Shown: positions 19,264 to 57,418, counted from the stretch's first letter. The stretch: 64,000 bases of DNA from Candidatus Micrarchaeota archaeon (GCA_020854825.1 JAHKLY010000002.1:175485-239484); one strand, 5' to 3'. Notes: generated by a model not told the origin, from the letters alone. Numbers and translations are program-made.

Positions 19264-19318
19264 TTTTCTTTCTTTTTCGTTAACGTTTTTCTTTCTTTTT
19301 TGAAAAGAAAGAAAAAGG
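19264..19318 (-). repeat. Y-R1-N8-R2 inverted plus mirror repeat element just after the dnaK stop
   Basis: Sense: CC T5CT3CT4 CAA A4GA3GA5 CGTTAACG A5GA3GA4. Same layout as in four tRNA introns. Confidence 0.75.
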
Positions 19319-21166
19319 TTATTCTTTTGTAAAATCTGCATTTATTGTATCATCTGTACCTTGTGCATTTTGTTGATCTTCTGAAGGAGCTTGTTGTGCT
19401 CCTGCTTGTTGTGCGCCTTGTGCTTTTTGATATATTTCTGATCCTATCTTTTGTAATTCTTTTGTTAATGCTTCTGTTTTTTGTTTTATTTCTTGTGCAT
19501 TTTCACTTGATTGTACTTTTTTAACTTCTTCTATTTTTTCTTGTATTCTCTTTTTAATATCTTCAGGTATTTTATCTTTATATTCATCTAATGTTTTTTC
19601 ACTTGAATAAACCATTGATTCCGCTTCATTTTGCGCTTCAATTAATTCTTTTCTTTGTTTATCTTCATACTCATGTACTTCTGCATCTTTCATAGCTTTT
19701 TCAACATCTTCATCATTCATTTTGTGTGGTGCTGTTATAGTAATTTTTTGTTCTTTTCCAGTACCCTTATCTTTAGCAGAAACATTCAATAACCCATTTG
19801 CATCTATATCAAAAGTTACTTCTATTTGAGGAACCCCTCTTGGTGCTGGTGGTATACCAGTTAATTGGAAATTACCTAATTCAATATTATCTTTTGCTAT
19901 TGCTCTTTCCCCTTGGAATATATGTATATCTACTGCAGGTTGGTTATCTGCAGCTGTTGAAAATATTTGACTTTTCTTTGTAGGTATAGTTGTATTCCTA
20001 TCAATTAATTTTGTAAATACTCCTCCCATTGTTTCAATACCTAAGGATAAAGGAGTAACATCTAATAAAACTAAATCTTTAACTTCACCAGATAATACTC
20101 CTGCTTGAATTGCTGCACCCATTGCAACACATTCCATTGGATCAATACCTCGTTCTGCTTTTTTACCTACAAAATCTTCAACAAATTTTCTTACAATTGG
20201 CATTCTTGTTGGTCCACCAACCAAAATAATTTTTGTTATTTGATCTGGGGATATTTTAGCATCTTGTAATGCATTATGTATAGGTTCTTTACATCTTTGA
20301 ACTGTTGATTGAACCAAACTTTCTAATTTTGCTCTTGTTAATTTATGTTGAAAATTAACAGGTTCATTATTTTTCTGAGTTAAAAATGGTAAATTTATAT
20401 CAGTTTCAACTACTGTTGATAATTCTATTTTAGCTTTTTCAGCTGCTTCTTTTAATCTTCTCATTGCAGTTGTGTCCTTACTTATATCTACTCCTTCTTT
20501 TTTATTTAGATCTTCAAGTAAATATTTTACAATCGATTCATCCATGTCTTCTCCACCTAAATTAGTATCACCATTTGTTGAAATAACTTCAAAAACCCCT
20601 TCGCCAAAATCCATTATTGTAACATCTAATGTTCCACCACCCAAATCAAAAACTAAAATTTTATGGTCTTGATCTGCTTTGTCTAATCCAAAAGCTAATG
20701 AAGCTGCTGTTGGTTCATTAATTATCCTAACTACATCTAATCCTGCAATTTTACCTGCATCTTTTGTTGCTTGTCTTTGATTATCATTAAAATAAGCTGG
20801 AACTGTAATTACTGCTTTTTCAACTTTATCTCCTAAAAATTCTTCGGCATCTTTTTTTATTTTTTGTAAAACAAATGCAGATAACTGTTGAGGAGTATAT
20901 TCTTTATCTCCTAATTTATATTTATGATCCGTACCCATTTTTCTTTTAAATGCAGTAAATGTCCTATCTGGATTTGTAACTGCTTGTCTTCTTGCAGGTT
21001 CGCCAACTAACATTTGATTATCTTTTGTAAATGCAACAATTGATGGAAATGCTTTTCCATACATTGTATTACCTTCTGCACTTGGTATTATCTTTGGTCT
21101 TCCGCCTTCTAATACTGATGCTGCGCTGTTTGATGTTCCTAAATCTATTCCTATTATTTTACTCAT
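19319..21166 (-). CDS. dnaK: Chaperone DnaK (Hsp70)
   Basis: [37 protein letters not shown]. Confidence 0.98.
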
Positions 21167-21742
21167 TTAATCTACCTCCTCTTTTCCGATACAAACACAT
21201 GCGTGTCTAATTACTTCTCCATTTAGTAAATATCCTTTTTTCAAAACTTTTGTAATTTCTCCTTCTTTGCCTTTTTCATACATAAGAGCTTCATGTTTAT
21301 ATGGATCAAATTCTTTGCATTCCATTACTTCTAATCCTCTTTTTTTCAAAGTAGATAATAGTTTTTCATGCAACATTATTAATCCTTTTTTAATATTTTC
21401 ATTATTTTTATCTTCTTTAATATGTTTCATAGATTCTTCTAATTCATCTAAAAATTCTAATAAATCTAATATTAATTCTTTATTAGCTGTCTTTTTTAAT
21501 TTTTCAATTTCTTTATCTGTTCTTTTATGATAATTATCAAATTCTGCATGTAATCTTAGAAGTTTCTCTTCTAATTCTTCAATCTTTTTTGTATTTTCTA
21601 TTTGATTATTTTCTGTTTTTTCACAATCACAATTTTCATCATTACAATCGCAGTTTTCATCATTACAATCGCAGTTTTCATCATTACAATTGCAATTCTG
21701 ATTTTCACAATTACAGTATTGGTTTTCACATTCTTTTTTCAT
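21167..21742 (-). CDS. grpE: Nucleotide exchange factor GrpE with Cys-rich repeat N-terminus
   Basis: RLHAEFDNYHKR, FDPYKHEAL, KGYLLNGEVIRHA. Directly upstream of dnaK. Confidence 0.93.
   Translation of the reverse strand: MKKECENQYCNCENQNCNCNDENCDCNDENCDCNDENCDCEKTENNQIENTKKIEELEEKLLRLHAEFDNYHKRTDKEIEKLKKTANKELILDLLEFLDELEESMKHIKEDKNNENIKKGLIMLHEKLLSTLKKRGLEVMECKEFDPYKHEALMYEKGKEGEITKVLKKGYLLNGEVIRHACVCIGKEEVD
21623..21730 (-). repeat. 21-bp coding tandem repeat (5 units) encoding (NDENCDC)n
   Basis: ACAATCGCAGTTTTCATCATT exact at 21644 and 21665, with variants at 21623, 21686 and 21707. Confidence 0.9.
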
Positions 21743-21746
21743 ATTT

Positions 21747-22127
21747 TCACCCGTCTTTTATTTCAATTTTTCTTCTTTTTTCTGTTATTATGAATTCTTT
21801 ATCCATCCTTTCTGCCATATTCTCTAATTCTTCAAACATTCTAATCATTTTTTTTCTTCTAAAATCAACATAATCTTCTATTGAATTAAATTTCATTTTA
21901 TATTTTCCTTTTTTTTCTTCTAATAATCCTTGTTCTTTTAATCTTTCTAAATGGTGTCTAACTGTTAAGCGGTGAAGACCGCTTAACTTAGATAATTCAG
22001 TGCTAGTTATTGGTTCTTCTTTTTTACATAAAACTGATTTAAATACAATCACTGTTGTTCCTTCTGTATCCCTTTTTGAGAGCAATCTTGCTTTTTTACA
22101 AAATTCTTCTATCTCTTTTTGATTCAT
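21747..22127 (-). CDS. Winged-HTH regulator in the heat-shock operon
   Basis: ITSTELSKLSGLHRLTVRHHLERLKEQGLL. Lies between hsp20 and grpE. Confidence 0.85.
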   Translation of the reverse strand: MNQKEIEEFCKKARLLSKRDTEGTTVIVFKSVLCKKEEPITSTELSKLSGLHRLTVRHHLERLKEQGLLEEKKGKYKMKFNSIEDYVDFRRKKMIRMFEELENMAERMDKEFIITEKRRKIEIKDG

Positions 22128-22137
22128 TATTGCACCT

Positions 22138-22584
22138 TTAATTTACTTCAATTCTTTTTTTCTCCTTTTTTGAATCTGGTTTTTTCTTTACTGTTATTTC
22201 TAATACTCCATTTTTGTATGTTGCATTTACTTGATTTGGATCTGCAGTTTCTGGTAATGCGAATGTTCGTTTAAATCCCCCATATGATCTTTCATATCTT
22301 ATATATCCTTCGGCTTCTCTTTTTATTTCTTCTTTTTTCTCAGTTTTAACTTCTAATCTATTTCCAATTACTTCTAATTGTATATCTTTTTTTTCTACTC
22401 CAGGTATATCCATTATATACACTATCTCATCTTCTTTTTCAATGATATCACTTAGTGGTGCTGAATATGTATTTATCCCTTGTTTGTTTGTTAGCATAGG
22501 CAAATTACTTTGTCTTAAATTAAACAAACTATCCATTTCTTCTTGCATTCTTTGTACCTCATCCCAAATAGTCCATCTTCTCAT
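22138..22584 (-). CDS. Small heat-shock protein (Hsp20)
   Basis: DIPGVEKKDI, ERSYGGFKRTFALP, ATYKNGVLEI, terminal IEV motif. Confidence 0.95.
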   Translation of the reverse strand: MRRWTIWDEVQRMQEEMDSLFNLRQSNLPMLTNKQGINTYSAPLSDIIEKEDEIVYIMDIPGVEKKDIQLEVIGNRLEVKTEKKEEIKREAEGYIRYERSYGGFKRTFALPETADPNQVNATYKNGVLEITVKKKPDSKKEKKRIEVN

Positions 22585-22603
22585 ATTTATACACCTCCTA
22601 TTT

Positions 22604-22666
22604 TGTTAATAAGATATTAACTATTTAAAAACGAAATATTTAAAAAGTGTTAGTATGGTATTAACA
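22604..22666. promoter_or_regulatory. Two palindromic candidate operators flanking the hsp20-dnaK TATA box
   Basis: TGTTAATA-AGA-TATTAACT (22604-22622) and TGTTAGTA-TGG-TATTAACA (22648-22666) around minus-strand TTTTTAAATA. Confidence 0.65.
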
Positions 22667-22733
22667 TTTTTAATTATTAAATCTTTTAAAAAATAACAAA
22701 AGTTTATATACTTTTTAATATTATTAAAATATA

Positions 22734-24485
22734 ATGAAAAAAATCTTATTAATATTATTACTATTTACTATCTTAGTATTTGCTAAATCCTATTCTATAG
22801 GGCCAATGACTCAAGAAATTTATATTAATTTAGATGGAACTGTTGATATTAATGAAACTCTATCTTATTCTTTTAATTCCGGTTCATTTTCAGAAGTTTA
22901 TAGAACTATCCCATTATCTTGGCAAGGCGCTGTTTTTGAAATTTTAGAATGTCAAGTTTATGAAGATGGAAAACCTATTAATACACGAGTAGATAGCATA
23001 GGAAATAATAAAATAGAGTTAATTGGATATAGTTCATGGAAGAATGAAGTACACGATTATACTTTTTCATATAAAATTTCGCATATTATTGTATGCTATG
23101 AAGATGTATGTGATTTTTACTGGAAATTAAAGGGAACTGAATGGGATAAACCTTTTCCTTCGTTAAAATCAAAAATATATTTACCCTCCAATATTTCTAA
23201 AGAAAATTATAAAGCATGGGGACATGGACCATCAAATGGAAATGTAGAATTGTTTGACAATTATGCTTATTATACTGCAAGTGATATTGCAGGTTCGCAA
23301 TATGTTGAAGCACGCTTAGCTTTTCCTTCTGAATTAATAACAGACAAATCAAATACAATAATAAAAAATGAAATGGGTTTAGAAAAAATAATAAATGAAG
23401 AGCTATCATTTTATGAAAATAATGATTTATCAACTTATGAAGAAAAAGAGGATTCATTAATAATATTTTTATTAATTTTTATTTGGATTTGCGGACTAAT
23501 TAGTATTTATTTTATTTGGAAAAAATATGGTAAAGAACCAGAAATTAATTTTGATGCAAAATATTATAGAGAATTACCCAATAACTATTCTCCTGCTGTT
23601 TTAGGATGTTTGATAGATGCAATTAATAAAAAACCAAGGACAAACGATATAGTTGCTTGTATCTTAGATTTAGCCCAAAAAGGATACCTAAAAATAAAAG
23701 AAGTTCCTGCTAAAAAAACATGGGGTATTTTTGGAAAGGATACACATACAATTATAATCCGAACAAATAAAGAGGATACAAACTTATTAAGTTTTGAAAA
23801 AGATCTTTTAACTTTCCTATTTAAAAATAAAAAGGAAGTTGATCTAGATAACAAATTTAAAAAATATAATTCTACAAATTATTCTTTTTTCGAAGAATGG
23901 AAAGATAATGTTAAAAAACATGTAGAAAAATATAAATTCCATAATTTAGAAGATGCAAAAACAGGAAAAATATATACTCTACTTGTAATTCTAATAGTAA
24001 CATTCTTATCTCTGATTATATCCTCAATATCTATTTGTTTATGCCCATTAGTAGCCATGTTAATACCATTCATAGTTATGTTTAGTATTATATTTTATTT
24101 TGGACTATCAAAACCATTTGAAAAAAGGACTGAAAAAGGTGCATTAGAATACGAACAATGGATGGCTTTCAAAAGATTTTTAGAAGATTTAACTTTAATG
24201 AAAGAAAAACCTCCATCTGCAGTTGAATTATGGGGCCATTATTTAATCTATGCAGTTTCATTAGGCGTTGGAGAAAAAGTAATAAAATATATTAATTTAG
24301 AATATCCTAACAACTCTCCTAACTGGTATATATCAAATAACATAAATACTACATTTACTATGGCTTCTTTTATGGCATTGAATACAACTATGGCATCAAT
24401 TTCTCCTTCCTCATCAGGTTCTGGTGGAGGCTTCGGAAGCGGAGGAGGTTTCGGAGGAGGTGGTGGTGGCGGAGGCGCCAGGTGA
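22734..24485 (+). CDS. DUF2207 family membrane protein
   Basis: Signal peptide, LDGTVDINETLSY, SPAVLG, WGHYLIYAVSLGV, Ser/Gly-rich tail GGGFGGGGGGGGAR. Confidence 0.9.
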   Translation: MKKILLILLLFTILVFAKSYSIGPMTQEIYINLDGTVDINETLSYSFNSGSFSEVYRTIPLSWQGAVFEILECQVYEDGKPINTRVDSIGNNKIELIGYSSWKNEVHDYTFSYKISHIIVCYEDVCDFYWKLKGTEWDKPFPSLKSKIYLPSNISKENYKAWGHGPSNGNVELFDNYAYYTASDIAGSQYVEARLAFPSELITDKSNTIIKNEMGLEKIINEELSFYENNDLSTYEEKEDSLIIFLLIFIWICGLISIYFIWKKYGKEPEINFDAKYYRELPNNYSPAVLGCLIDAINKKPRTNDIVACILDLAQKGYLKIKEVPAKKTWGIFGKDTHTIIIRTNKEDTNLLSFEKDLLTFLFKNKKEVDLDNKFKKYNSTNYSFFEEWKDNVKKHVEKYKFHNLEDAKTGKIYTLLVILIVTFLSLIISSISICLCPLVAMLIPFIVMFSIIFYFGLSKPFEKRTEKGALEYEQWMAFKRFLEDLTLMKEKPPSAVELWGHYLIYAVSLGVGEKVIKYINLEYPNNSPNWYISNNINTTFTMASFMALNTTMASISPSSSGSGGGFGSGGGFGGGGGGGGAR

Positions 24486-24489
24486 TAAA

Positions 24490-25338
24490 TTGCATTTAAT
24501 AATTGGAATAGATCCAGGAACAACAACAGGAATTTCAGCTCTTAATCTAAACGGAAAACTAATTAAAATAATTAATATGAGAAATGCAGGAAAATCAGAA
24601 GTAATAAAACAAATATTGGAAATTGGAACTCCAAGTATTATCGCTACAGACAAAAAACCTTGCCCAGATTCTGTTTTAAAAATAGCAGCAAGTTTTAATA
24701 TAAGATTATTTGTTCCAAAAAAAGAGTTATCACAAGAAGAAAAAAAGAGAATAATAAAAGAACAAAACATCAAAGTTGAAAATAATCATGAAAGAGATGC
24801 ATATTCTGCTGCATATAAAGCATATCATGAATTTAGCAATAGGTTGCAACAAATAGAAAATAAAATTGAATTTATAGAAAAGGAAAGAGATTATTTAAAA
24901 CATTTAGTATTAAATGGCCACTCTTTAAATAATGCAATACTCTTCTTAAAAAAACCAGTAGAAAATATAGAAAAAGAAATAAAAACAAAACCGACTACAA
25001 AAGAAAAAACTATTGAAACCTTTATATTTGAAATTAAAACTTTATCTAATAAAAATCAAGAGTTAAAAAAATCAGTCGAAAGATTAAAAATTGAAAAAAC
25101 CTCACTTGAACTAATTATCAACCATGAGAAAAATGAAAGAAAAAAAGAAATTGAAAAAAACAAAGAAGTAATTCGTCTCAAAAATGAAATTATTAGATTA
25201 AAACTATATATTGAAAATACTAAAAAAAAGAAAAAACCCAAAAAAAAGCAGAAAAAAGATAATAGAAAGTATTTAAAAAACTTAGTTGAAAATATTATTA
25301 CTGAATACAGAGACAAAAGAAAAAAAGAATTAAACTAG
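24490..25338 (+). CDS. DUF460 domain protein (RNase H-like fold with coiled coil)
   Basis: IIGIDPGTTTG, IIATD..P, HERDAYSAA. TTG start after GGTGA RBS. Confidence 0.85.
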   Translation: MHLIIGIDPGTTTGISALNLNGKLIKIINMRNAGKSEVIKQILEIGTPSIIATDKKPCPDSVLKIAASFNIRLFVPKKELSQEEKKRIIKEQNIKVENNHERDAYSAAYKAYHEFSNRLQQIENKIEFIEKERDYLKHLVLNGHSLNNAILFLKKPVENIEKEIKTKPTTKEKTIETFIFEIKTLSNKNQELKKSVERLKIEKTSLELIINHEKNERKKEIEKNKEVIRLKNEIIRLKLYIENTKKKKKPKKKQKKDNRKYLKNLVENIITEYRDKRKKELN

Positions 25339-25350
25339 GAGGTGTCATAT

Positions 25351-25629
25351 ATGACAGAAAAAGAAGACAATACAGTTTTTATAGGAAAAAAGAATATTAT
25401 GGGATATGTATTAGCAGTAGTAACCCAATTTAATAACGGAGCAAATGCAGTAGAAATAAAAGCGAGAGGAAAAACCATATCCAAAGCAGTAGATGTAGCT
25501 GAAATTGTAAGAAATAGATTCATGCCAGATGTAACTGTAGAAAAAATTGAAATCAAAACTGAAGAACTAATGTCTGAAGATGGATCAAAATCAAAAGTCT
25601 CTGCAATTGAAATTAAATTAAAGAGATAA
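25351..25629 (+). CDS. albA: DNA/RNA-binding protein Alba
   Basis: [37 protein letters not shown]. Confidence 0.96.
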
Positions 25630-25675
25630 ATAATACATCTCTTTTTTTATTTTTCTTTTTTAAATATGTGATTAA

Positions 25676-27004
25676 ATGGAAAGAACATTAATAAATAATC
25701 TAAAAAATAGAATAGATAAAGAAGTGCTAATCAAATGTTGGGTAGCAAATATTAGAGATAAAAATAAGATAAAATTTATAATAATCAGAGATAGGACTGG
25801 AGAAACGCAAGGAATTGCATTAGAAGAAGACTGTGAAAAAGAATCATTTGGTTTAATATCTACTATCTACCGAGAATCAGCAGTTGAAATTAAAGGAATT
25901 GTTAAAAAAAGTGAACAAGCAAAGGAAGGCTATGAAGTTCTTATAAAAAATATTAAAATTTTATCTCCTTCAGAACCTAAACTTCCAACAGAAGTTTATG
26001 GTAAAATAGAATCAAATTTAGATACACGATTGGATAATAGATTTTTAGACACTAGAAGAAAGGAGATTAATGCTATTTTTAGAATACGATCACAAGTATT
26101 TAAATCTGCTGTTGAATATCTAGATTCACAAGAATTTACAAAAATTGCTACTCCTAAAATTACAGTTTTAGGTTTAGAAGGAACATCAAATAATGAAAAA
26201 AGTGGATCTGAATTATTTACAATAGATTATTTTGGAAAAAAAGCATATCTAGCTCAATCTCCTCAGCTATATAAACAAATGTTTGTTGCAGGAGGTTTTG
26301 AAAGAGTTTATGATATAGGACCTGTATTTAGAGCTGAAAAATCACATACTACAAGACATGTAACTGAATTTACAGGTATTGATTTTGAAATGGGTTTTAT
26401 TGAAAATGAAAATGAAATAATAGATGTTGCAGAAGGATTGATAAAATATATTACTACTAAAATAAATGAAAAATGTAAAAAAGAATTAGAAATTTTAAAT
26501 AGGGAAATTTCTATTCCTAAAAAAATACCTCGTTTAGATATAAATGAAATAAGAGAAATCTTAAAACAAAAAGGAAAAGAAATACCTATTGACGAGGATT
26601 TAGATGCGGAAGGAGAAAAAATATTAAGTGAATATATTAAAGAAGAATATGATGAAGAATTTGTATTTGCATTAAATTACCCATTCAAAAAAAGACCATT
26701 TTATCATATGAAACCTGAAAATGATCCAAACGGAACAAAATCATTTGATTTAATTTATAATGGAGTAGAAATAGCAACCGGTTCTCAAAGAGAACATAGA
26801 ATTGATATTTTAGCAAAACAAGCAAAAGAAAAAGGTTTAGATTTAGATCAAATGCCAGAATATAAAAAAATATTTATGTATGGATGTCCACCTCATGGGG
26901 GGATGGGATTGGGTTTAGATAGAATAGTTGAAAAAATATTAAAATTAGATAATATTAGAGAAACAATTTTATTACCAAGAGATCCAGAAAGATTAAAACC
27001 TTAA
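25676..27004 (+). CDS. aspS: Aspartyl-tRNA synthetase, archaeal type
   Basis: LAQSPQLYKQ, FRAEKSHTTRH, PPHGGMGLGLDR, PRDPERLKP. Confidence 0.95.
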   Translation: MERTLINNLKNRIDKEVLIKCWVANIRDKNKIKFIIIRDRTGETQGIALEEDCEKESFGLISTIYRESAVEIKGIVKKSEQAKEGYEVLIKNIKILSPSEPKLPTEVYGKIESNLDTRLDNRFLDTRRKEINAIFRIRSQVFKSAVEYLDSQEFTKIATPKITVLGLEGTSNNEKSGSELFTIDYFGKKAYLAQSPQLYKQMFVAGGFERVYDIGPVFRAEKSHTTRHVTEFTGIDFEMGFIENENEIIDVAEGLIKYITTKINEKCKKELEILNREISIPKKIPRLDINEIREILKQKGKEIPIDEDLDAEGEKILSEYIKEEYDEEFVFALNYPFKKRPFYHMKPENDPNGTKSFDLIYNGVEIATGSQREHRIDILAKQAKEKGLDLDQMPEYKKIFMYGCPPHGGMGLGLDRIVEKILKLDNIRETILLPRDPERLKP

Positions 27005-27016
27005 AAATATTTAAAA

Positions 27017-27192
27017 GCCTCTGTAGCTCAGCTTGGTAGAGCGCTTGCTTGGTAAGCACTTTCTTTACGCCTTCGGCGCAAAGAACCTGCACTAAGAAAA
27101 TCTAAAAAGCAAGAGGTCGTGGGTTCAAAAATCTTTGAATGATAAATCATTCAAAATTTACCAATCAAAGATTGACAATCCCATCGGAGGCT
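27017..27192 (+). tRNA. tRNA-Thr(GGT) with introns at 37/38 (27055-27107, 53 nt) and 59/60 (27130-27178, 49 nt)
   Basis: Acceptor GCCTCTG/CGGAGGC, D stem GCTC/GAGC, anticodon stem CTTGC/GCAAG, T stem GTGGG/CCCAT. BHB central helices TTGG/CTAA and TTCA/TGAC (3 of 4 bp). Confidence 0.92.
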
Positions 27193-27209
27193 TTTTTACA
27201 GTGATAAAT

Positions 27210-27788
27210 ATGAATTACACAGAATATCAAAAAATGCTTGAAACTGCTTGTAATACAATTTTAAACGGAGGGATAATTCTTTATCCAACTGATACTGTTT
27301 TTGGTTTAGGTTGCAATGGGTTAAATGAAAAAGCAGTTAAAAAAATAGAAAAAATAAAAAAAGTAGAAGAAAAAAAACCAATTTCTGCAGTGTTTGGACA
27401 TATTGATATAATTAAACAGTATTGCAAAGTTTCTAAAGAACAAGAAGAAATATTAAATATATATTTACCTGGCCCATACACGTTTATTTTACCTTTAAAA
27501 AAACAACTTCCTTTATCGACTAATAACACATTGGGTGTAAGAATTCCCAATGATAAATTTTGTATTGATTTAGGAAAAACATTAAAACTCCCAATTGCAT
27601 CAACAAGCGCAAATATTAACAAAGAACCAACACAATTCCAATTAAATGAAATAAACAAAGAAATAATTGAACAAGTAGATTATATAATAAAAGGAGAATG
27701 CAAAGAAAAAGAAGCTTCAACAATAGTTAATTTAATAAATAATATCTCAATAATAAGACAAGGTACAGGAATTTTTGAAATTAGGTGA
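27210..27788 (+). CDS. tsaC: Threonylcarbamoyl-AMP synthase (YrdC/TsaC domain only)
   Basis: YPTDTVFGLGC, PGPYTFIL, GVRIP, STSAN. Start moved downstream of the tRNA. Confidence 0.92.
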   Translation: MNYTEYQKMLETACNTILNGGIILYPTDTVFGLGCNGLNEKAVKKIEKIKKVEEKKPISAVFGHIDIIKQYCKVSKEQEEILNIYLPGPYTFILPLKKQLPLSTNNTLGVRIPNDKFCIDLGKTLKLPIASTSANINKEPTQFQLNEINKEIIEQVDYIIKGECKEKEASTIVNLINNISIIRQGTGIFEIR

Positions 27789-27792
27789 AAAC

Positions 27793-28326: not shown

Positions 28327-28376
28327 AGTAATAAGAATAAACAAAAATTAGTGAAATACTACTTATTTTGTTTTGA

Positions 28377-44917: not shown

Positions 44918-45176
44918 TGCTCCGGCCGGGATTGTCAGTCTACTGGCAATACTTGACATATGCCAATACATTTGAATTCCCGGACCTACAGGGTTCTTTT
45001 CTTTCCCTGGGGTTTCTTTTCTTACAAGAAAAGAAAGGCCACCCGGGTCGCCAGGAATCTCTGACCTCTTTTCTTTTTTCTTTCTTTTCCCGCAACGTAC
45101 GGCTTTTCTTTCTTTTTAAAGAAAGAAAAGGGGCCGTGAGAGCCTGGTATCCTTGACCGGACTAGACGACCGGAGC
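44918..45176 (-). tRNA. tRNA-Glu(CTC) with three introns: 37/38 (45057-45136, 80 nt), 53/54 (44977-45041, 65 nt), 59/60 (44932-44970, 39 nt)
   Basis: Spliced 75-nt cloverleaf GCTCCGG...CCAGG-CT-CTC-AT-CCTGG-CGAC-CCGGG-TTCAAAT-CCCGG-CCGGAGC-A. BHB helices CTCT/AGAG, CCCG/CGGG, TTCA/TGAC (3 of 4 bp). Confidence 0.9.
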
Positions 45177-46009: not shown

Positions 46010-46210
46010 ATGGCAGAGAAAAAAATTATAGACTGGATCGCTTATGTACTATTAATTATTGGCGGTCTGAATTGGGGGCTTTATGGATTACTAAATATGG
46101 ATTTAGTAGCTCTATTATTAGGAACAATCCCAATATTAGCAACAATTGTATATCTATTAGTAGGTATATCCGCAATATATGTATTATATGTATTAGTTGC
46201 TAAAAAATAA
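46010..46210 (+). CDS. DUF378 small membrane protein
   Basis: LLIIGGLNWGL..NMDLV...IVYLLVGISA. Confidence 0.9.
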   Translation: MAEKKIIDWIAYVLLIIGGLNWGLYGLLNMDLVALLLGTIPILATIVYLLVGISAIYVLYVLVAKK

Positions 46211-46337
46211 ATTTTTCTTTTTTTTTCTTTTTTTACAAATTAAAACTCGATTTTTGAATTTTAAATTTTAGGCTTAAGATTATAAATCTTATACTTGATA
46301 AATTTCTTAACTAAATTAGTTAAAATGAGGTGAAAAT

Positions 46338-47021: not shown

Positions 47022-47042
47022 TAAGTTCCTTCTCTTTTTTTT

Positions 47043-47750: not shown

Positions 47751-47825
47751 AAAAATCACCTAATAACAATTTATTCAAATACAATTAAAAAAGGTATTCA
47801 ATATAATATTAATGTTGGTGATATT

Positions 47826-49139: not shown

Positions 49140-49169
49140 TATAAAAAGATTCGCTTATTAAAAACATAT

Positions 49170-51827
49170 ATGATTCCTACAAAAAATGAACTTAGAAAAC
49201 AATTTTCAAAAGACTGGAAAAAACATTACAATTTAAAAGTTTTACATAAATATGGTTTTCAAAGACAACAATGTAAAAAATGCGGAAAAAATTTTTGGTC
49301 AAAACAAAAACAAGACCATTGCGAAGATCCATCTTGTATAGGTTATCAATTTGTGGGAAAGCCAACAGGAAAAAAACATTCATATATAGAAGCATGGAAA
49401 ACAATTGAAAAATATTTTACAAAAAACAAACATAAATCAATTTATACTTATCCTTCAGTAGCAAGATGGAGAGACGATTTATATTTTACAATTGCTTCTA
49501 TCTCTGATTTTCAACCTTATGTAGTAACAGGTGAAGTTAAACCTCCAGGAAATCCGTTAATAATACCCCAAGCATGTATACGATTTGGAGATTTATCAAA
49601 CGTAGGAGTAACAGGAAGACATATGACTTCTTTTACAATGATTGGTCAGCATGCATTTAATACAGATAAATTATTTTACTGGAAAGATGAAGCTTTAGAA
49701 CACGATATAAAACTGCTTAAAGAATTTGGAATTAAAGAAGAAGAAATTTCCTTTATAGAAGATGTTTGGATGGGAGGAGGAAATTTTGGACCTTGCATTG
49801 AATATTTTGTTAAAGGAATGGAAATTGGAAATTGTGTTTTTATGCAATATCAATTCTTACCAAATGGAGAATCTAAAGAACTAAAAACAAAAGTTATAGA
49901 TATGGGTGCAGGATTAGAAAGATTTGCATGGATAACACAAGGAACAGCTACAATTTATGAACCAACATATGAATTTGTTTTAGATAATATACTAAAAAAT
50001 GCAGGATTAAAAATTGATAAAAAATTAACAACTGCATTTTGGTCAAAAGCAGGCGGATTAGATATTGAAGAAGGAAAAATATCCCAAGAAAAAACAAAAA
50101 TAGCACAAGAATTAGGAATGAGTGAAAAAGAATTATTCAATCAAATAAAACCTTTACAATCTGCCTTTGCATGCACTGACCATCTAAAAACAATTTTATT
50201 TGCATCAACAGATGGTATGCTCCCAAGTAACGGCGGGGGGGGATATAACCTAAGAATGATTTTAAGAAGAACTTTTGGATTTAATGAAGAATTTAATTTA
50301 AATTTAGATTATGATAGAATATTTGAAGACCATGCTAAATTATTAAAACCACTATATCCACATTATTCTGAAGGAGTAATAACAGCACAAGAAGTTGTAA
50401 AAGAAGAATTAAAAAAATATAAAAACACAAAGGAAAAAGCACAAGGTAAATTAATAAATGTTATTTCAAAAGCTAAAAAACAAGGAGGGTTGCAATTAAG
50501 TGAATTAATTACATTATACGAAAGTGATGGAATACCCGTAGAATTAATACAAGAAATAGCAAAAAATAATAACTTAGATCTGGCCATTCCAGATAATTTT
50601 TATGACTATATAAAAAAGAAAGATGAAGAAATAGAAGAAAAATCCCAATATTGTGTAGATAATTTTTGTCAGACAAAATCAGAATATTATAACAAAACCG
50701 AATGTACTTCAAAAGTAATCGGAATATTAAATGATTATATTATAACAGATAAGTCCTGTTTTTATCCAGAAAGTGGGGGGCAAGTAGGTGATATCGGCAC
50801 AATAAACAATGAAGAAATATTAGAAACAATAAAACAAAAAGGAGTTATATTACACAAAGTTAAAAACCCAAATAAATTCAAAAAAGGAGATAAAGTTAAA
50901 TTAAAAATAAATGAAATAAGAAGAAAACAAATTTCAATGCATCACACAGGAGCACATTTGCTTAATGCTGCTACAAGAAATATTTTAGGAAGACATGTTT
51001 GGCAGGCAGGCTCATATAAAAATGAATATAAAGGACAATTAGATTTAACACATTATAAAAGAATTACACAAGAAGAATTAGATAAAATTGAATTAAAAGT
51101 AAATGAATATATAAGACAAAATTTACTAATAAAAACTGAAGAATTAGAAAGGAACAAAGCAGAAGAACAATATGGAATGAGAATATATCAAGGAGGTGCT
51201 GTTCCTGGAAGTAAATTAAGAATTGTGTCTATAGGAGATATAGATCATGAAGCATGCGGAGGAACACATTCAACATTCAAACAAACAGGTGAATTTGGAG
51301 TATTTAAAATAATAAAAAGAGAAGGAGTAAAAGATGGAATAGAAAGAATTTCATTTAAATGTGGAGATTCAGCAATAAAATATATCCAAGAAAAAGAAGA
51401 CTTAATAAGAAAAACTGCAGAAATAATTTCTGTACCTGAAGATAAGTTAAAATTAAGTATTGAAAACTTATTTGAAGATTGGAAACAAAGAGGAAAAGTA
51501 TTAATTTCGTTAAGACAAGAATTTGCAAAAAGAGAAGTTGATAGACTTGAAAAAATTCATGAACAAAAGAAAAAAATTATAATTAGGTCAATAAATGCAA
51601 ATATTGAAACTTTAAAAGAGATTGGCGCTGAAATAACAAACAGAGATAGTGAAATGGCAGTTATTTTAGTAAATAAAACAAATAACATAGTTTGCGCAGT
51701 AGGCAAAAAATCAAAACAAAGCGCTAAAGACATTTTAGGAAACACATGTAAACAATACGGAGGTTCTGGAGGTGGAAGTATAAAAATAGCCTTCGGAAAA
51801 ACAACAAAAATCATAAAAAAGGATTAA
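49170..51827 (+). CDS. alaS: Alanyl-tRNA synthetase, archaeal type
   Basis: N-terminal Zn motif, ARWRDD.YFTIASI.DFQP, HTGAH, ACGGTH, GGSGGG. Confidence 0.96.
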   Translation: MIPTKNELRKQFSKDWKKHYNLKVLHKYGFQRQQCKKCGKNFWSKQKQDHCEDPSCIGYQFVGKPTGKKHSYIEAWKTIEKYFTKNKHKSIYTYPSVARWRDDLYFTIASISDFQPYVVTGEVKPPGNPLIIPQACIRFGDLSNVGVTGRHMTSFTMIGQHAFNTDKLFYWKDEALEHDIKLLKEFGIKEEEISFIEDVWMGGGNFGPCIEYFVKGMEIGNCVFMQYQFLPNGESKELKTKVIDMGAGLERFAWITQGTATIYEPTYEFVLDNILKNAGLKIDKKLTTAFWSKAGGLDIEEGKISQEKTKIAQELGMSEKELFNQIKPLQSAFACTDHLKTILFASTDGMLPSNGGGGYNLRMILRRTFGFNEEFNLNLDYDRIFEDHAKLLKPLYPHYSEGVITAQEVVKEELKKYKNTKEKAQGKLINVISKAKKQGGLQLSELITLYESDGIPVELIQEIAKNNNLDLAIPDNFYDYIKKKDEEIEEKSQYCVDNFCQTKSEYYNKTECTSKVIGILNDYIITDKSCFYPESGGQVGDIGTINNEEILETIKQKGVILHKVKNPNKFKKGDKVKLKINEIRRKQISMHHTGAHLLNAATRNILGRHVWQAGSYKNEYKGQLDLTHYKRITQEELDKIELKVNEYIRQNLLIKTEELERNKAEEQYGMRIYQGGAVPGSKLRIVSIGDIDHEACGGTHSTFKQTGEFGVFKIIKREGVKDGIERISFKCGDSAIKYIQEKEDLIRKTAEIISVPEDKLKLSIENLFEDWKQRGKVLISLRQEFAKREVDRLEKIHEQKKKIIIRSINANIETLKEIGAEITNRDSEMAVILVNKTNNIVCAVGKKSKQSAKDILGNTCKQYGGSGGGSIKIAFGKTTKIIKKD

Positions 51828-52567
51828 AAATTAATAAATACAAATCTAACTTCTGATGAGGGGGGTCTATCAGTATAAATTGCATCTGCATCTGAAAACA
51901 TACCTCTTTGAATCCAAGTTATCATTTTTCGTGGAGATCTAATAAAAACACGTTTTTTCCCAGGAAATATTTTTGATCCATTGTTATGTCCTAATGGACA
52001 ATATACTCTTTTATCTACTCTTTCATATGTATTTTCTATAGGTATAACAAATGAAACTATGCCTTTTGGATCACATATAATTTCAAAAATATTATTTTCA
52101 CATTTTAAAACCGAATAATAACGAGGATGACAAAATACTGCTGTATCTGGTGTGTTTAAACAAGATTTAGGTACTCTTAACATATATTTAACATTAGTAA
52201 ACTCATCTGTGTATTCAAAATATTCGGACAATTTTTTTCCTTTATCAGGATAGGCTATCAAAGTTCCAGTCCCAACAGTACAAGGATTTCCAAATACTTT
52301 TTGTAATTCAATATTAGGAGTACCCCACGCTGTTATTAGATGACTATCAAAAATAGGATTAGGGGGATTTTGTAATTTTAAGTCTTGAGCTATCAATACC
52401 CCTTCTATTTGGGGTCCTTTAGGTCTATCATTCATAATCTGGAACGTCTCCCGTTTTCCATCTCGTGTTATTGCGCTTTCACTAATTATTTCTCCATATT
52501 TTGGATGATATACTCTAGAAACCATATTATTCATATTAATCTTAATGTTGTCTGAGTTTATAAACAT
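51824..52567 (-). CDS. Hypothetical protein, DPANN-type family (possible C-type lectin-like fold)
   Basis: TGTLIAYP..GKKL...EYTD....Y...VP pattern recalled from Micrarchaeota paralogue families. Start uncertain. Confidence 0.55.
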   Translation of the reverse strand: MFINSDNIKINMNNMVSRVYHPKYGEIISESAITRDGKRETFQIMNDRPKGPQIEGVLIAQDLKLQNPPNPIFDSHLITAWGTPNIELQKVFGNPCTVGTGTLIAYPDKGKKLSEYFEYTDEFTNVKYMLRVPKSCLNTPDTAVFCHPRYYSVLKCENNIFEIICDPKGIVSFVIPIENTYERVDKRVYCPLGHNNGSKIFPGKKRVFIRSPRKMITWIQRGMFSDADAIYTDRPPSSEVRFVFINF

Positions 52568-52578
52568 TGTTAATCGGT

Positions 52579-53091
52579 TTAATAATTAAGAACATACATT
52601 CCAAGATATGCAAGGAGTATAAAACGAAATGTTTTACCTAAAATCGCAGCTATTAAAAATTTCCATATATTCATATGCATTGCTCCTGCTGTTATCCCTA
52701 TAATATCAAAAACTGGGTTTGGTAAAAATGAAAATACAAATACTGCTAAACACCCGTATTTATTGACATACTCTGAATATTGTTTTGCCTTTTTTTCTTT
52801 ATTTAGTAAATGTGTTCCTCCTTTTCCTAAATAATATCCTGTTAATTCACCTATCCCACCCCCTAATCCTGCCATTATACCTAAAATAATTGGATTATAA
52901 CTTTTAGACATAATAAAAACAACTGCCCAAGAAGGAATAGGAAAAATAATCGTTGCACTCCCTATTAAAGAAATTACAAATGCACCCATATAACCAAATG
53001 ATTCAAAAAACGGGAGGTATTCAATTAATAAAAAAGCAATAATAGAAATTAAAATAACCAATCCAATGCTTAAAATGGGTTTCTTATCCAA
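52579..53091 (-). CDS. DedA/VTT-family membrane protein
   Basis: GELTGYYLG, LPNPVFDIIGITAG, GKTFR. Confidence 0.88.
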   Translation of the reverse strand: MDKKPILSIGLVILISIIAFLLIEYLPFFESFGYMGAFVISLIGSATIIFPIPSWAVVFIMSKSYNPIILGIMAGLGGGIGELTGYYLGKGGTHLLNKEKKAKQYSEYVNKYGCLAVFVFSFLPNPVFDIIGITAGAMHMNIWKFLIAAILGKTFRFILLAYLGMYVLNY

Positions 53092-53100
53092 ACTCTTCCC

Positions 53101-53682
53101 TCATCTAAATAAACATCCACATTTATTGCACTTTTCAGCATTAGAAGGATTTGTTGCACCACATTCTGGACAAATGCGTGATTTTTCTTTATCTTCGAGT
53201 GTCTCTTGTTTACCAAATTCTCTTGGTCTTGGTTTAGCATCTTGTAAACCAAAAGATTTTCCTTCATTATCATAAACAACTAATTTTTCACGTTTTAATT
53301 TTTCAATAATTAAAGAGATAATTATCATAAATTCCTCTAAATCAACTTCATGTTGAATGGATGTTTTATAAGATTTCTCTAATAAATTAACTAAACTTCT
53401 TAAAAAAGCAGCATCTAATTCTACTCCTTTTTCCTCTTTTTTTGAAGCATCTTTTAATTTTTCACTTAAGATTAATTGAGTCATAGATAATTCTTTATGT
53501 ATTTTTCTAAGTTCCTTAGATTCTTCTTTAATTTTTATCTGAAATTCAATAGCTAGATTTGCTATCGTCCCCCATGATAATTCAGCCAAATTTTCTTTAA
53601 ATCCAGGGGGTAACTTATCTTTATATTTATGAATCAATTCTTGAGTATCAATATCTTCCTTATATCCGACTGTTTGTTTCAT
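53101..53682 (-). CDS. Hypothetical protein with C-terminal zinc ribbon
   Basis: CPECGATNPSNAEKCNKCG. Confidence 0.7.
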   Translation of the reverse strand: MKQTVGYKEDIDTQELIHKYKDKLPPGFKENLAELSWGTIANLAIEFQIKIKEESKELRKIHKELSMTQLILSEKLKDASKKEEKGVELDAAFLRSLVNLLEKSYKTSIQHEVDLEEFMIIISLIIEKLKREKLVVYDNEGKSFGLQDAKPRPREFGKQETLEDKEKSRICPECGATNPSNAEKCNKCGCLFR

Positions 53683-53717
53683 ATCTTCATATTCAACATA
53701 GACATTTATATATGTTT

Positions 53718-55046
53718 TTATCTCTTCTTACTTTTATGTTTTGAAATTACTTTTTGGATTTTCTCTGCCTTAAAATCTTTTTTAACAAAAAGATATGATA
53801 AAATATATCCTAATATAACAACTCCTGCACCAAATAGAAGTATTGAACCTTCCATTTGAAGTATCAATACAAAACAGGATATTGCGCCCAAGAATGATAA
53901 AACTGGAAACTTTCCAATATTAATAGGAGTTTTGAACTTTCTTTTAAGTTTAATATTCTTATATCTTAAAACAATTGCAGATATATTTATAACAAAAAAG
54001 GTTGATAAAATTGTTACATTTGTCATATTTGCAACTGTTCCTATGTTTCCAATTGTAACAAAAATAATAGATGCTAACAACAATAAAATTATTGCAACCC
54101 AAGGTGTTTGTCTAACACTATGTAATTTTCCGACTATTTTTGGTAATACATTTCCTCTTGCCATCCCATACATCATTCTAGAACCTGCTAATAAAATTAA
54201 TAAAACTGTATTTGCTGTTGCAAATAATGCAATAGCACCTAATAACATAAAAGCATTATTCCCTAAAGAAACAGAAGCTACTTCAGCTAATGGTGCACTA
54301 GATTGAGATAATGCTTCCCACCCCATCACACTCACAGATGCAATTCCTACTAAAATGTATAATACTGTTGAAATTATTATTGACATAACAATAGCATTGG
54401 GTACAGAATGTGTTGGATTTTTTACTTCCTCTGCCATATTGGCCATATCTTCAAAACCGATATATGCAAAAAATACTAAAGCTCCTGCTGCTAATACGCC
54501 AGCAAAACCTAATTCTGGTGGAAGTTCAAAATAATCCACAGAACCAAAATATGGAATTCCTAAAAATATTATAATTATTAATCCTATAATCTCAATAATT
54601 GCACAGATTATGGCAAACCATGCTGATTCTTTTATTCCATAAAAAAGTATAAATGATAAAAATATCAATGCTCCGATTGCAGTTAAAATTATGGGCGTAT
54701 TAAAAAAAGCACTAAAATATCCAGCAAAACCCAATGAAACTGCTGCTGCAGAGATAATTGGAGTTACTAATAACAGCCAACCTATTATAAATGCTAATCG
54801 TTTGTTAAATGCTTTTTCAGTAAAAACAAATTCTGCTCCTGCTTTTGGAAATAAAGATGCTAACTCTGCATAACTTAAACCAGTTAAAGACGCGACTACT
54901 GCTGCAACAATAAATGACAACCAAACCATATTTCCAGATAATCCTGCTGCTTCACCAATAAGTACATAAATCCCTGCACCTAATATGATACCTACTCCTA
55001 CTAATGTTAATTCCCAAAAACTTAATGCTCTTTTTAATGTTACCAT
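53718..55046 (-). CDS. APC-family amino acid permease (copy 2)
   Basis: GIILGAGIY, SYAELAS, FFAYIGFE, EEVKNP, about 12 TM helices. Confidence 0.93.
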   Translation of the reverse strand: MVTLKRALSFWELTLVGVGIILGAGIYVLIGEAAGLSGNMVWLSFIVAAVVASLTGLSYAELASLFPKAGAEFVFTEKAFNKRLAFIIGWLLLVTPIISAAAVSLGFAGYFSAFFNTPIILTAIGALIFLSFILFYGIKESAWFAIICAIIEIIGLIIIIFLGIPYFGSVDYFELPPELGFAGVLAAGALVFFAYIGFEDMANMAEEVKNPTHSVPNAIVMSIIISTVLYILVGIASVSVMGWEALSQSSAPLAEVASVSLGNNAFMLLGAIALFATANTVLLILLAGSRMMYGMARGNVLPKIVGKLHSVRQTPWVAIILLLLASIIFVTIGNIGTVANMTNVTILSTFFVINISAIVLRYKNIKLKRKFKTPINIGKFPVLSFLGAISCFVLILQMEGSILLFGAGVVILGYILSYLFVKKDFKAEKIQKVISKHKSKKR

Positions 55047-55079
55047 AAAAATATAATAAACCTAAATTTTAAAAAGGTA

Positions 55080-56432
55080 TTATTTTTTTTTCTTACGCTT
55101 TTTATATACTTTTTTATGGTTTCTAGTATGTATTTTTTCTTGAATCACAACTGGTTTTATATTATCTTTAACAAAAATGTAAGATAATAAAAATCCTATT
55201 ATAATTATACTAGAACCAAAAAGTATTACTTCAAATTCCATTTGAATAATTAATAATACACAAGTTAAAGCTCCAAAAAAAGGTATTATGGGAAACTTAC
55301 CTATACTTAAAGGAATTTTAAAATTACGATGAATACCTGGTAATTTGTACCTTAAAATTATTGCAGAACAATTGACAATAAAGAAAGAAGCTAAAATAGC
55401 AATATTTGTCATATTTGCAACTATTCCTATTTTTCCAATCAAAACAAAAATTGAAGAACATATCAATAAAATTATAATTGCAACCCAAGGGGTTTTCCAC
55501 TTTGGATGTAATTTTGCTAATACAATAGGTAGTCCATTTCCTTCAGCCATTCCATAAGTTAATCTTGAAGCTGCTAATAAAATTAATAAAATAGTACTTG
55601 TAGTTGCAAAAAGAGCAACAAAACCTAATATCAAAAACGCATTACTTCCTAATGATTCTGCTGCAACATCTGCTAATGGTGCACTAGATTGAGATAATGC
55701 TTCCCACCCCATCACACTTACCGAAGATATTGCTACAAGAATATACAATACTGTAGAAATTACAATTGCAATTATTGTAGCTTCTGGAACAACAACTTTA
55801 GGATTTTTTGTTTCTTCTCCCATATTAATCATAGTATCAAAACCGATGTATGCAAAAAATACTAAAGAAGCAGCTGACAAAACTCCAGCAAATCCCAATT
55901 CAGGAACCATTTCAAAATAATTAATAGAATCAAAGTAGGGAATTCCAAATACAATAACTCCTAAAAGTCCTAATATTGTTATAATAGCACAAATTATTGC
56001 AAATCTCGCAGAGGTTTTTATTCCTAATATTTGAATAATTGATAAAACTATCAATGCTCCGATTGCAGTTAAAATTATAGGTGTATTAAAAAAAGCACTA
56101 AAATATCCAGCAAAACCTAATGCAACTGCTGATGCAGAAACAATACATGCAGTTATCAACAGCCAACCTATTATAAATGCTAATCGTTTGTTAAATGCTT
56201 TTTCAGTAAAAACAAATTCTGCTCCTGCTTTTGGGAATAAAGATGCTAACTCTGCATAACTTAAACCAGTTAAAGCTGCTACTACTCCTGCAATTATGAA
56301 TGACATCCATATCATATTTCCAGATAATCCTGCTGCTTCACCAATAAGTACATAAATCCCTGCACCTAATATGATACCTATTCCTGTTAATGTTAATTCC
56401 CATAATGTTAATTCACGTTTTAATTTTACCAT
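55080..56432 (-). CDS. APC-family amino acid permease (copy 1)
   Basis: Same motifs (FFAYIGFD, EETKNP). Tandem paralogue. Confidence 0.93.
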   Translation of the reverse strand: MVKLKRELTLWELTLTGIGIILGAGIYVLIGEAAGLSGNMIWMSFIIAGVVAALTGLSYAELASLFPKAGAEFVFTEKAFNKRLAFIIGWLLITACIVSASAVALGFAGYFSAFFNTPIILTAIGALIVLSIIQILGIKTSARFAIICAIITILGLLGVIVFGIPYFDSINYFEMVPELGFAGVLSAASLVFFAYIGFDTMINMGEETKNPKVVVPEATIIAIVISTVLYILVAISSVSVMGWEALSQSSAPLADVAAESLGSNAFLILGFVALFATTSTILLILLAASRLTYGMAEGNGLPIVLAKLHPKWKTPWVAIIILLICSSIFVLIGKIGIVANMTNIAILASFFIVNCSAIILRYKLPGIHRNFKIPLSIGKFPIIPFFGALTCVLLIIQMEFEVILFGSSIIIIGFLLSYIFVKDNIKPVVIQEKIHTRNHKKVYKKRKKKK

Positions 56433-56499
56433 CCTTATTTTTAAAATACTAAGATTTAAAAATGATGTGTTTTAATATTTCATAAAGGAGGATGATATT

Positions 56500-57189
56500 A
56501 TGAAAAAAATATTAGCTATGTTTGCTTTAGTTGCAGTACTATTATTTTTTATGGGGTGCACTGAAACAACAAAGAACACAGAAATTGCTCCAACAAATGG
56601 AGAAACACAAGAATCTACAACAGAATCTGTTGAAAAACCTTCCACAGACTCTAATTTATTCAAAGGATTTATAGATTGGGAACCTGGGATGTGGGTAGAA
56701 TGGAAATCTGACGATATGATTACAAAAATGGCAATTGTAGAAAAAAGTGAAGGAATTTTAAAATTCCAAAGTGAAACTGAAATAGAAGGTATGTCTTCAA
56801 TTTCACAAATATGGTACGATGAAAATACAATGGAATTAATAAAATATATTACAAAAACTGAAGGAATGGTAATATGTTTTGACGGACAAACAACTGAAGA
56901 ATCTGTAAAATTAGAGACAGATGAAGCATATTCTGGACAAGTACCAAATATGGGATATGGAACATATACAACTCCAACTGGTAAAACAGTAAATGTTGCT
57001 AAATTTACAACAACAGATGGGGAATATTGGGTTTCAGATGAAGTTCCATTTGGAATGGTTAAAATATCATTTGGAGATATAGATCAAATGCTATTAAATG
57101 ACTTTGGAACAATAGGTGCAGTAAATAAAATAACAAGCGAAGATATTGCAAACTGCCAAGATTTAGGTTCAATGTTCCCAACACAATAA
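56500..57189 (+). CDS. Hypothetical lipoprotein
   Basis: FMGC lipobox, GMWVEW and WVSDEVPFGMVK motifs, GGAGG RBS. Confidence 0.75.
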   Translation: MKKILAMFALVAVLLFFMGCTETTKNTEIAPTNGETQESTTESVEKPSTDSNLFKGFIDWEPGMWVEWKSDDMITKMAIVEKSEGILKFQSETEIEGMSSISQIWYDENTMELIKYITKTEGMVICFDGQTTEESVKLETDEAYSGQVPNMGYGTYTTPTGKTVNVAKFTTTDGEYWVSDEVPFGMVKISFGDIDQMLLNDFGTIGAVNKITSEDIANCQDLGSMFPTQ

Positions 57190-57239
57190 CTTTCTTCTTT
57201 TTTTTATTTTTTTAAAATTAGATATATATTAAAAATAAA

Positions 57240-57418
57240 TGGGCCCGGTGAGATTTATTCAACTTATTTTCTCTTTTTAATGAAGGTTTTTCTCTTTTTC
57301 AAAAGAGAAAAAAGTTCTTGAACACACGGCCTCTCGATTATCAGTCGAGCGCTCCAACCATTTTAGGCTATTATTTAAAATATTTATTAAATAATACAGC
57401 TGACTAAGCTACGGGCCC
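57240..57418 (-). tRNA. tRNA-Ile(GAT) with introns at 17/17a (57361-57401, 41 nt) and 58/59 (57255-57317, 63 nt)
   Basis: GGGCCCG/CGGGCCC, CTCGA-CT-GAT-AA-TCGAG. BHB helices TTAG/CTAA and GTTC/GAAT. One T-T mismatch in the T stem. Confidence 0.92.

Follow-up and report, generated by a model that had tools for sequence, protein, structure and literature searches.

A polar three-tract repeat of triplex-type symmetry in the tRNA introns of a Micrarchaeota archaeon

Why should four tRNA introns and the space directly behind dnaK carry the same small arrangement of tracts? The question is raised by a stretch of 64,000 nt from Candidatus Micrarchaeota archaeon (GCA_020854825.1, JAHKLY010000002.1:175485-239484; hereafter the window), in which five loci read, on the transcribed strand, as a pyrimidine tract (Y), its reverse-complement purine tract (R1), a short linker and a second purine tract that mirrors the first (R2). 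The window corresponds to positions 175485-239484 of contig C2 in a genome here called G000 (828 kb, 7 contigs, 28% GC, 97.6% complete), which was compared with a second genome of the same genus, G001, whose dnaK region is 81% identical. The sequencing runs listed for the window are six DNA runs from sludge metagenomes. The element was found to be polar, multi-copy and rapid in turnover, with triplex-type symmetry; many non-canonical tRNA introns have it as their core, and it is also present 1-3 nt behind stop codons. On balance, the five sites are probably copies of a 45-55-nt non-autonomous repeat of the class II intrastrand triplex type that is tolerated by its host and whose mirror tract would be kept for the element's own fold.

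Copies in the window and across the genome

Reading of the sequence at each coordinate found all five copies with the order Y, R1, linker, mirror R2 that the original prediction had described. Behind dnaK (Hsp70; open reading frame (ORF) at 19319-21166, minus strand; Hsp70 match with E 7.9e-229), whose stop codon adjoins it, the element occupies 19264-19318 on the minus strand: the TAA stop at 19319-19321 is followed by CC, leaving a gap of 2 nt, and then by Y (T5CT3CT4, 19303-19316), a C, R1 (19286-19301), the linker CGTTAACG (19278-19285) and R2 (A5GA3GA4, 19264-19277). Two further minus-strand copies lie in tRNA-Glu(CTC). The one in the T-stem intron (~53/54; 44989-45040) reads GGCC, Y (45026-45036), GT, R1 (45013-45023), linker CCCCAGGG (45005-45012), R2 (44994-45004) and then CCCTG, which is able to pair with the linker, and the one in the anticodon-loop intron (~37/38; 45077-45135) reads GGCCC, Y (45118-45130), AA, R1 (45103-45115), a 13-nt hairpin linker (45090-45102) and R2 (45077-45089). 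In the T-loop intron (~58/59) of tRNA-Ile(GAT) (57261-57317, minus strand), GAACT precedes Y (57301-57312), which is followed by G, R1 (57287-57299), linker CCTTCATT (57279-57286), R2 (57267-57278) and TAAGTT, which closes the inner helix. The weakest of the five is the short-tract copy in the anticodon-loop intron of tRNA-Thr(GGT) (27060-27100, plus strand), with Y (TTTCTTT) at 27060-27066, an apical GC stem at 27067-27079, R1 at 27080-27085, linker CCTGCACT at 27086-27093 and R2 at 27094-27100. Its tracts are only 6-7 nt long, and at tract length 6 the scan of G000 found 73 loci as compared to 10.05 in shuffles; because this background is appreciable, the Thr copy is not above chance on tract length alone, and its linker and context are consistent with the family.

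The whole genome was scanned for an exact pattern of an 8-nt Y, a loop of up to 20 nt, the reverse complement, 3-16 nt and the mirror, with 20 block-wise dinucleotide shuffles and six alternative tract arrangements as controls. The scan returned 43 loci, against a shuffle mean of 0.15 and a maximum of 1, and the six other arrangements gave 0-3 loci each. A looser pattern based on composition only (Y10, R10, R10) gave 82+90 overlapping matches and its reverse 0+3, and among perfect hairpins of at least 8 bp there were 55 with Y first, as compared to 11 with the purine tract first; all five window loci have the Y-first order. At a setting of 7-nt tracts, 48 loci were taken together with their flanks; two of them are chance-like, which leaves about 46 copies, and the family of five first reported was an undercount. 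Could such a motif simply be a product of an AT-rich, low-complexity genome? The 28% GC of G000 and the approximately ten loci expected at 6-nt tracts are in keeping with that idea, and yet the 8-nt count, the near-zero reversed control and the occurrence of the same AT-rich element in stretches of 54-61% GC rule it out for practical purposes.

Many tracts are nearly symmetric, and the third tract was therefore scored hairpin by hairpin: the downstream region was aligned without gaps to the mirror and to the direct copy of R1, and the best fits to the two were compared. G000 has 55 perfect hairpins, 43 of them with a third tract, and in these 43 the mirror won 28 times and the direct copy 3 times, with 12 ties; for 58 unique elements from G000 and 725 kb of G001 the numbers were 35, 7 and 16, and for 34 usable places of 44 in eight other genomes of the phylum they were 29, 3 and 2, with a margin of 2-3 positions in 16 of the 34. 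For this last set every listed composition-only place was taken, chance-like ones included, and those counted as usable combined a hairpin of 8 bp or longer with a third tract that matched at 80% or above. The copies share descent, and element counts are not counts of independent events. An R2 that directly repeats R1 is ruled out by these figures, and internal deviations of R2 from the mirror numbered 6 in 86 unique elements. The linker has its mode at the 8 nt first taken as typical (36 of 83, with a tail to 23 nt), loop 1 is mostly 2-3 nt, and the linker is often a self-complementary mini-turn (CGTTAACG, CCCTAGGG, CCTCGG) or a short GC hairpin; the mini-turn suits a strand that folds straight back. 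The C-rich internal loop noticed at the basal stem is also real: in 44 of the 86 unique elements a single foot mismatch of pyrimidine-pyrimidine type is bridged by at least two further pairs (C.C 27, C.T 10, C.A 4, T.T 2, T.C 1). The 5 nt upstream of Y are similar to those upstream of R2, with 181 of 415 positions identical as compared to 122.5 ± 7.2 for shuffled partners. Within the tracts, whose G fraction is 0.185, an internal GG occurs in 1 of 86 as compared to 12.0 expected, the minimum in 1000 shuffles being 3.

The genomic context of the 48 loci was assigned by reading the flanks by eye, not by a tool. Thirty-four lie inside tRNA genes, all in sense (T-loop, D-loop, anticodon region or T-stem), six immediately behind a stop codon or in a short spacer after a gene, three in tRNA spacers or trailers and one just upstream of tRNA-Met on the opposite strand; two were unplaced and two are probably chance. 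The suspected bias toward the transcript strand is evident, since a T-loop motif stands within 16 nt before Y in 17 of 43 copies and its reverse complement follows R2 in only one, and since all six post-gene copies are sense. Five of these six stand 1-3 nt behind the stop of a same-strand ORF (one was scored at 11 nt by the parser's Y start) and the sixth lies in a short spacer behind its gene; none of the G000 copies checked against ORFs adjoins a convergent one. Three separate tRNA genes of G000 contain identical copies. On contig C7 (6339-6475, minus strand), two elements are separated by 50 nt in a region where neither a tRNA nor an Rfam family is called, and one of them has a 13-nt GC-hairpin linker like that of the Glu ~37/38 copy; rRNA genes were considered as their host, and no rRNA match was found in contig C6 or in the first 20 kb of C7. 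Rfam gave only far sub-threshold hairpin look-alikes. Beyond the post-gene element at C3:138847, an 11-nt unit (AACAAAAGAAC-like) is repeated in tandem from C3:138898 onward (plus strand).

Oligo-T is an archaeal transcription termination signal, and all six post-gene copies contain a T5 run, so the T-rich Y tract might halt the polymerase just past the gene, the element being kept as a terminator or insulator. The same runs (T5-T6) are, however, present in 21 of the 37 other copies, mostly in tRNA genes on the transcribed strand, where an efficient terminator would cut essential tRNAs short. Termination also leaves R1, the turn and the mirror R2 unexplained, and the bacterial PIT elements, to which we return below, had no terminator activity in earlier work according to the available part of PMC4666352. 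We regard this explanation as unlikely.

Turnover between genomes and spread across archaea

The orthologous dnaK site of G001 is without the element, and the reading frame there is 15 codons longer: the DnaK tail (19319-19365, minus strand, as compared to L001:1270-1345) ends ...FTKE at the element in G000 and in G001 has 15 more residues, mostly acidic or lysine. The T-loop of tRNA-Ile in G001 is uninterrupted, the entire intron being missing. For tRNA-Glu, the 53/54 intron is identical in the two genomes, and the 37/38 intron of G001 holds a different element: its tract is another one, its linker has 8 nt where G000 has the 13-nt hairpin, and the mirror rule is kept. A D-loop intron at C4:81098 is missing from G001, and three element-bearing introns are found only in G001. 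Among the post-gene copies, those at C1:12091 and C3:138847 are missing from G001 with the stop codon kept, and that at C3:237015 is a variant there. Elements are gained, lost or swapped as units between these congeneric genomes. Because G001 is without the dnaK copy and the Ile intron and has a different Glu 37/38 element, the family is probably a fast-turnover, mobile repeat rather than a conserved regulator. The earlier suggestion that a small repeat colonised introns is well supported by this presence and absence and by the identical copies in different tRNA genes. The tracts were also said to change together in all three strands, with covariation in orthologous introns as the check: the mirror rule does hold in the swapped Glu 37/38 intron, and yet this sole differing orthologue is a wholesale replacement, so that its tracts changed together by exchange of the element and not by stepwise compensation, and no point-by-point case was seen. 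A candidate target-site duplication, a TAAC repeat at C1:12091, was not seen at the other post-gene copies and was dropped.

Beyond the genus, the composition-only pattern matches 131 of 301 sampled genomes of the phylum (two unpublished genomes in the sample have 1-2 matches, and no result rests on them). The matches are uneven by family, from 15/15 in f17, 7/7 in f16 and 17/23 in f6 to 5/75 in f13 and 6/54 in f14. One exact variant (T5CT3CT3 / A3GA3GA5 / 6-12 nt / A5GA3GA3) was found in 75 stretches of named metagenome-assembled genomes (MAGs), of which 25 are from Altiarchaeota-type MAGs, 21 from records titled only 'archaeon', 9 from Iainarchaeum or Diapherotrites, 8 from bacterial MAGs, 7 from Micrarchaeota, 4 from 'Methanobacteriota' and 1 from Woesearchaeota; the commonest variant had no match in viral contigs. 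The local GC of these stretches is 30-61%, so that the AT-richness of the tracts belongs to the element itself and does not come from the host genome. The bacterial stretches (L113, L118, L123, L126, L140, L144, L168 and L151; Ruminococcaceae, Clostridia and Anaerolineae; local GC 54-61%) have identical tracts embedded in a longer conserved repeat and could reflect either spread across domains or mis-binned contigs; L126 has two copies facing each other, at 6354-6405 (plus) and 6845-6896 (minus), about 440 nt apart.

In other lineages, ARAGORN called a neighbouring tRNA at 14 of 77 places, and in each of these 14 the tRNA is on the side of the Y end: six copies are on the strand of the tRNA and 3-8 nt from its 3' end, four lie 5' of it on the opposite strand (3-9 nt; L103, L120, L129 and L139) and four are inside it, in sense. 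G000 has a further opposite-strand copy upstream of a tRNA 5' end (C4:107262-107303, minus strand). Its orthologue in G001 (L018) carries a hairpin-forming insertion of 43 nt in the apical loop, flanked on both sides by TCTTG, as if another small insertion element had entered this one.

The fold that the mirror tract may serve

When 40 elements were folded as RNA, the mean was -11.4 kcal/mol with R1 blocked and -13.4 kcal/mol with R2 blocked, and in several intron copies, that of tRNA-Ile included, the structure of minimum free energy is Y:R2 stacked on the closing helix. Because Y:R2 is often nearly as good as Y:R1, an RNA switch, in which Y pairs with R1 or R2 in the pre-tRNA and the choice gates the bulge-helix-bulge motif and splicing, is physically possible for symmetric tracts. 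Such a switch would nevertheless need an R2 that is a direct copy, and it is the mirror that wins, in both the 58-element and the eight-genome sets. Where tracts are strongly asymmetric, pairing with R2 is poor (-6.2 vs -17.6 in one example), the same element stands behind protein genes and beside tRNA ends, and orthologous tRNAs manage without the intron. For these reasons the switch, one of the readings offered by the original prediction, now appears quite unlikely.

The purine-motif triplex is well known as DNA. In bacteria, the BoxC, PIT and TMECO repeats form a class II of intrastrand triplex repeats, in which a 5' pyrimidine tract is followed by its reverse-complement purine tract, a tight turn and a purine tract mirroring the first; in vitro, TMECO adopts a triplex fold as DNA, its distribution among strains is patchy, and it is associated with loci that have undergone rearrangement (Holder et al. 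2015, PMC4666352, as far as the paper was available to us). The family described here has the same hallmarks, namely a hairpin with Y first and a third purine tract that mirrors R1, and its 8-nt mode lies within the loop limits of 0-10 nt (Hoyne et al. 2000, as given in the available part of PMC4666352) and outside the 1-6 nt of the ITxF search, which would therefore miss an 8-nt turn. It is further like the bacterial repeats, as that part presents them, in being present in many copies, far above scrambled controls, in being very uneven between close relatives and linked to variable loci, and in having no assigned function. TMECO is G/C-rich with a fixed consensus (CCCTCNCCC...), has a 3-nt second loop and is intergenic in Proteobacteria, whereas the present family has A/T-rich variable tracts and mostly an 8-nt turn, and is archaeal and found mainly in tRNA introns on the transcribed strand. 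Membership in TMECO/BoxC was rejected, as the consensus CCCTCNCCC N3-6 GGGNGAGGG N3 GGGNGAGGG is absent and the tracts are T/A-rich with isolated C/G; the element is of the same kind and belongs to another family. The available text of PMC4666352 has 0 occurrences of 'tRNA' or 'intron', and no description of an archaeal, intron-borne triplex-type family was found in the literature, where the supplementary tables of ITxF may list archaeal matches. The earlier statement that nothing of this sort had been described therefore falls for the kind, which is already known from bacteria, and stands, as far as the literature was searched, for the archaeal intron-borne version.

Could the three strands form on the transcribed RNA itself, as a purine-motif helix that stabilises the excised intron or the 3' untranslated region? 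Mirror symmetry, the tight-turn linker and the sense polarity in transcribed regions are what such a helix would call for. Purine-motif triplexes are, however, stated to be unable to form in RNA (PMC4666352), or the evidence for them is described as mixed (review PMC7583470), in the parts of these two papers available to us. Foot mismatches of the G.U type (T.G) number 0 among the 86 elements, as compared to 4 of C.A, and in introns the helix would clash with the closing helix. A sense-RNA triplex is very doubtful, and one on DNA, or on the complementary strand, is more plausible. The triplex reading of the original prediction thus keeps strong support in its sequence signature, a mirror and not a direct third tract with a tight-turn linker, and is unlikely as sense RNA.

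In the class II repeat reading that we favour, the family extends across DPANN-type and other archaea, the elements lie in RNA that is discarded, and the host would tolerate them because that RNA is cut out or untranslated. Within a pre-tRNA, the element may act as a self-contained rod, made of Y:R1 or of a Y:R2 helix that stacks on the inner helix of the bulge-helix-bulge, and so hold the intron apart from the tRNA fold. The mirror tract would be kept because a three-stranded fold serves the spread, retention or recombination of the element itself, and not tRNA splicing. Such a fold, which we infer from tract symmetry, would most likely be adopted by the sense strand as single-stranded DNA, with T-A.A and C-G.G triads and Mg2+, or alternatively by the complementary strand as U.A-U/C+.G-C.

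Several observations weigh against this reading. In vivo footprinting of TMECO gave no support for a stable triplex (PMC4666352, available part). The near mirror-symmetry of the tract cores, a caveat raised from the start, is borne out, in that the mirror beats the direct copy by one position only in 26 of the 58 elements and 13 of the 34 places. The rarity of GG suggests that the isolated G better suits a pyrimidine-motif triplex (C+.G-C) on the other strand than a purine motif on the sense strand. By reading, closure of the inner helix comes 2-4 nt after R2 in the intron copies, so that this helix and a full-length triplex are mutually exclusive. The term mobile rests on presence and absence, and deletion could give the same pattern. 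Finally, neither a Y1 transposase nor a reverse transcriptase (RVT_1) nor TnpB was found in the 97.6%-complete G000. PF01797 and PF07282 both have 0 matches in G000 and also in the element-rich G004 and G007; the element-rich G005 has 0 and 4, respectively, the element-poor G003 has 4 of PF01797, and among 31 relatives these mobilising enzymes do not correlate with the element. An IS200/IS605-derived hairpin element (PATE/REP-like) was rejected as a candidate, with no Y1 transposase or TnpB in G000 and no tie to copy number.

The triple helix at the 3' end of MALAT1 and MEN-beta forms once RNase P has cut upstream of a tRNA-like structure (mascRNA for MALAT1). The complementary strand of the element has a similar layout, a U-rich tract, a turn, a U-rich tract and an A-rich tract, and at the opposite-strand copies upstream of tRNAs the tRNA-sense strand reads U-tract, turn, U-tract, A-tract, RNase P site; this layout 3-9 nt upstream of a tRNA 5' end occurs at 4 of the 77 places elsewhere. 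The element could accordingly be a cross-phylum mobile module that forms a true triplex and creates tRNA introns, and whose other strand is an archaeal MALAT1-like cap with an end made by RNase P and protected by the triplex. Isolated G fits the U.A-U/C+.G-C helix of this proposal, which is nonetheless a speculative one that we think improbable. A MALAT1-type ENE+A helix was rejected at the five window loci, where the transcribed strand is Y-R-R; neither sequence nor Rfam comparison showed a relation to that helix. At C4:106766-106975 (plus strand) G000 has an RNase P RNA of archaeal type (RF00373, 90 bits); its 210 nt span the whole 288-position model, and judged by that alignment it is a much reduced form.

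Host tRNA genes and the meaning of the element

In the unmodified window, ARAGORN called no tRNA and Rfam gave no match at gathering scores. After in-silico excision of the inserted segments, ARAGORN called tRNA-Thr(ggt), tRNA-Ile(gat) and tRNA-Glu(ctc), none of which had been called before excision; the Thr call needed removal of ~27054-27110 and ~27126-27179. With approximate ends, tRNA-Glu(CTC) spans 44931-45176 (minus strand) and has three introns, tRNA-Ile(GAT) spans 57240-57418 (minus strand) and has a D-loop intron in addition to its T-loop intron, and tRNA-Thr(GGT) spans 27017-27192 (plus strand) and has two. The extra introns are without the element and are plain hairpins, in the Glu T-loop (44931-44972, minus strand), the Thr T-loop (27126-27179, plus strand) and the Ile D-loop (~57364-57403, minus strand); that of the Glu T-loop has diverged between G000 and G001. 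ARAGORN accepted many boundary variants (1347/2744 for Thr, 1124/3969 for Ile and 1723/10000 for Glu), so the splice points are not fixed to the nucleotide, and the positions first given for the introns, 37/38, 53/54 and 58/59, are consistent with these calls without being pinned by them. The Ile insert is confirmed as an intron by the intron-less G001 orthologue, and at its junction, read by eye, TTCAA of the exon can be paired to TTGAA of the intron and AACT to AGTT, with bulges of 3 nt remaining.

The splicing endonuclease is encoded by one ORF of 414 aa with two PF01974 matches (two catalytic-type domains) and matches PDB 4fz2_A, which we take to be the ARMAN-2 enzyme, over its full length (E 2e-136). 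G000 is thereby predicted to encode a three-unit endonuclease able to cut non-canonical positions. This match, together with the occurrence of the element in named Micrarchaeota MAGs, lends indirect support to the placement of the genome in Micrarchaeota. The disrupted tRNAs of ARMAN type with their epsilon2 endonuclease (PMC3239211, available part) are similar in having T-arm introns at 53/54 and 59/60 and a single long endonuclease; the same text contains 0 occurrences each of purine, pyrimidine, hairpin and repeat and does not describe the element. In Thermoproteales, tRNA introns with a non-canonical bulge-helix-bulge are transposed and recently gained, by a mechanism described as not known (Fujishima et al. 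2010, as reported in the available parts of PMC4090602 and PMC3239211). These passages mention no triplex-type three-tract core, and the present element differs further in occurring outside tRNA genes as well and in another lineage.

The gain of tRNA introns at odd positions in archaea is an unsolved problem, and in the two congeneric genomes compared here a single small element of very unusual symmetry is present in all the introns by which they differ. If its triple-strand fold is true, the family would be the first of triplex type to be connected with intron gain, and also the first in archaea, and it would offer a natural case of three tracts changing together. The element also accounts for the failure of standard tRNA finders to detect nearly all tRNAs of such genomes, as with the zero calls in this window, and it provides a simple marker for mending tRNA annotation in DPANN and Altiarchaeota genomes.

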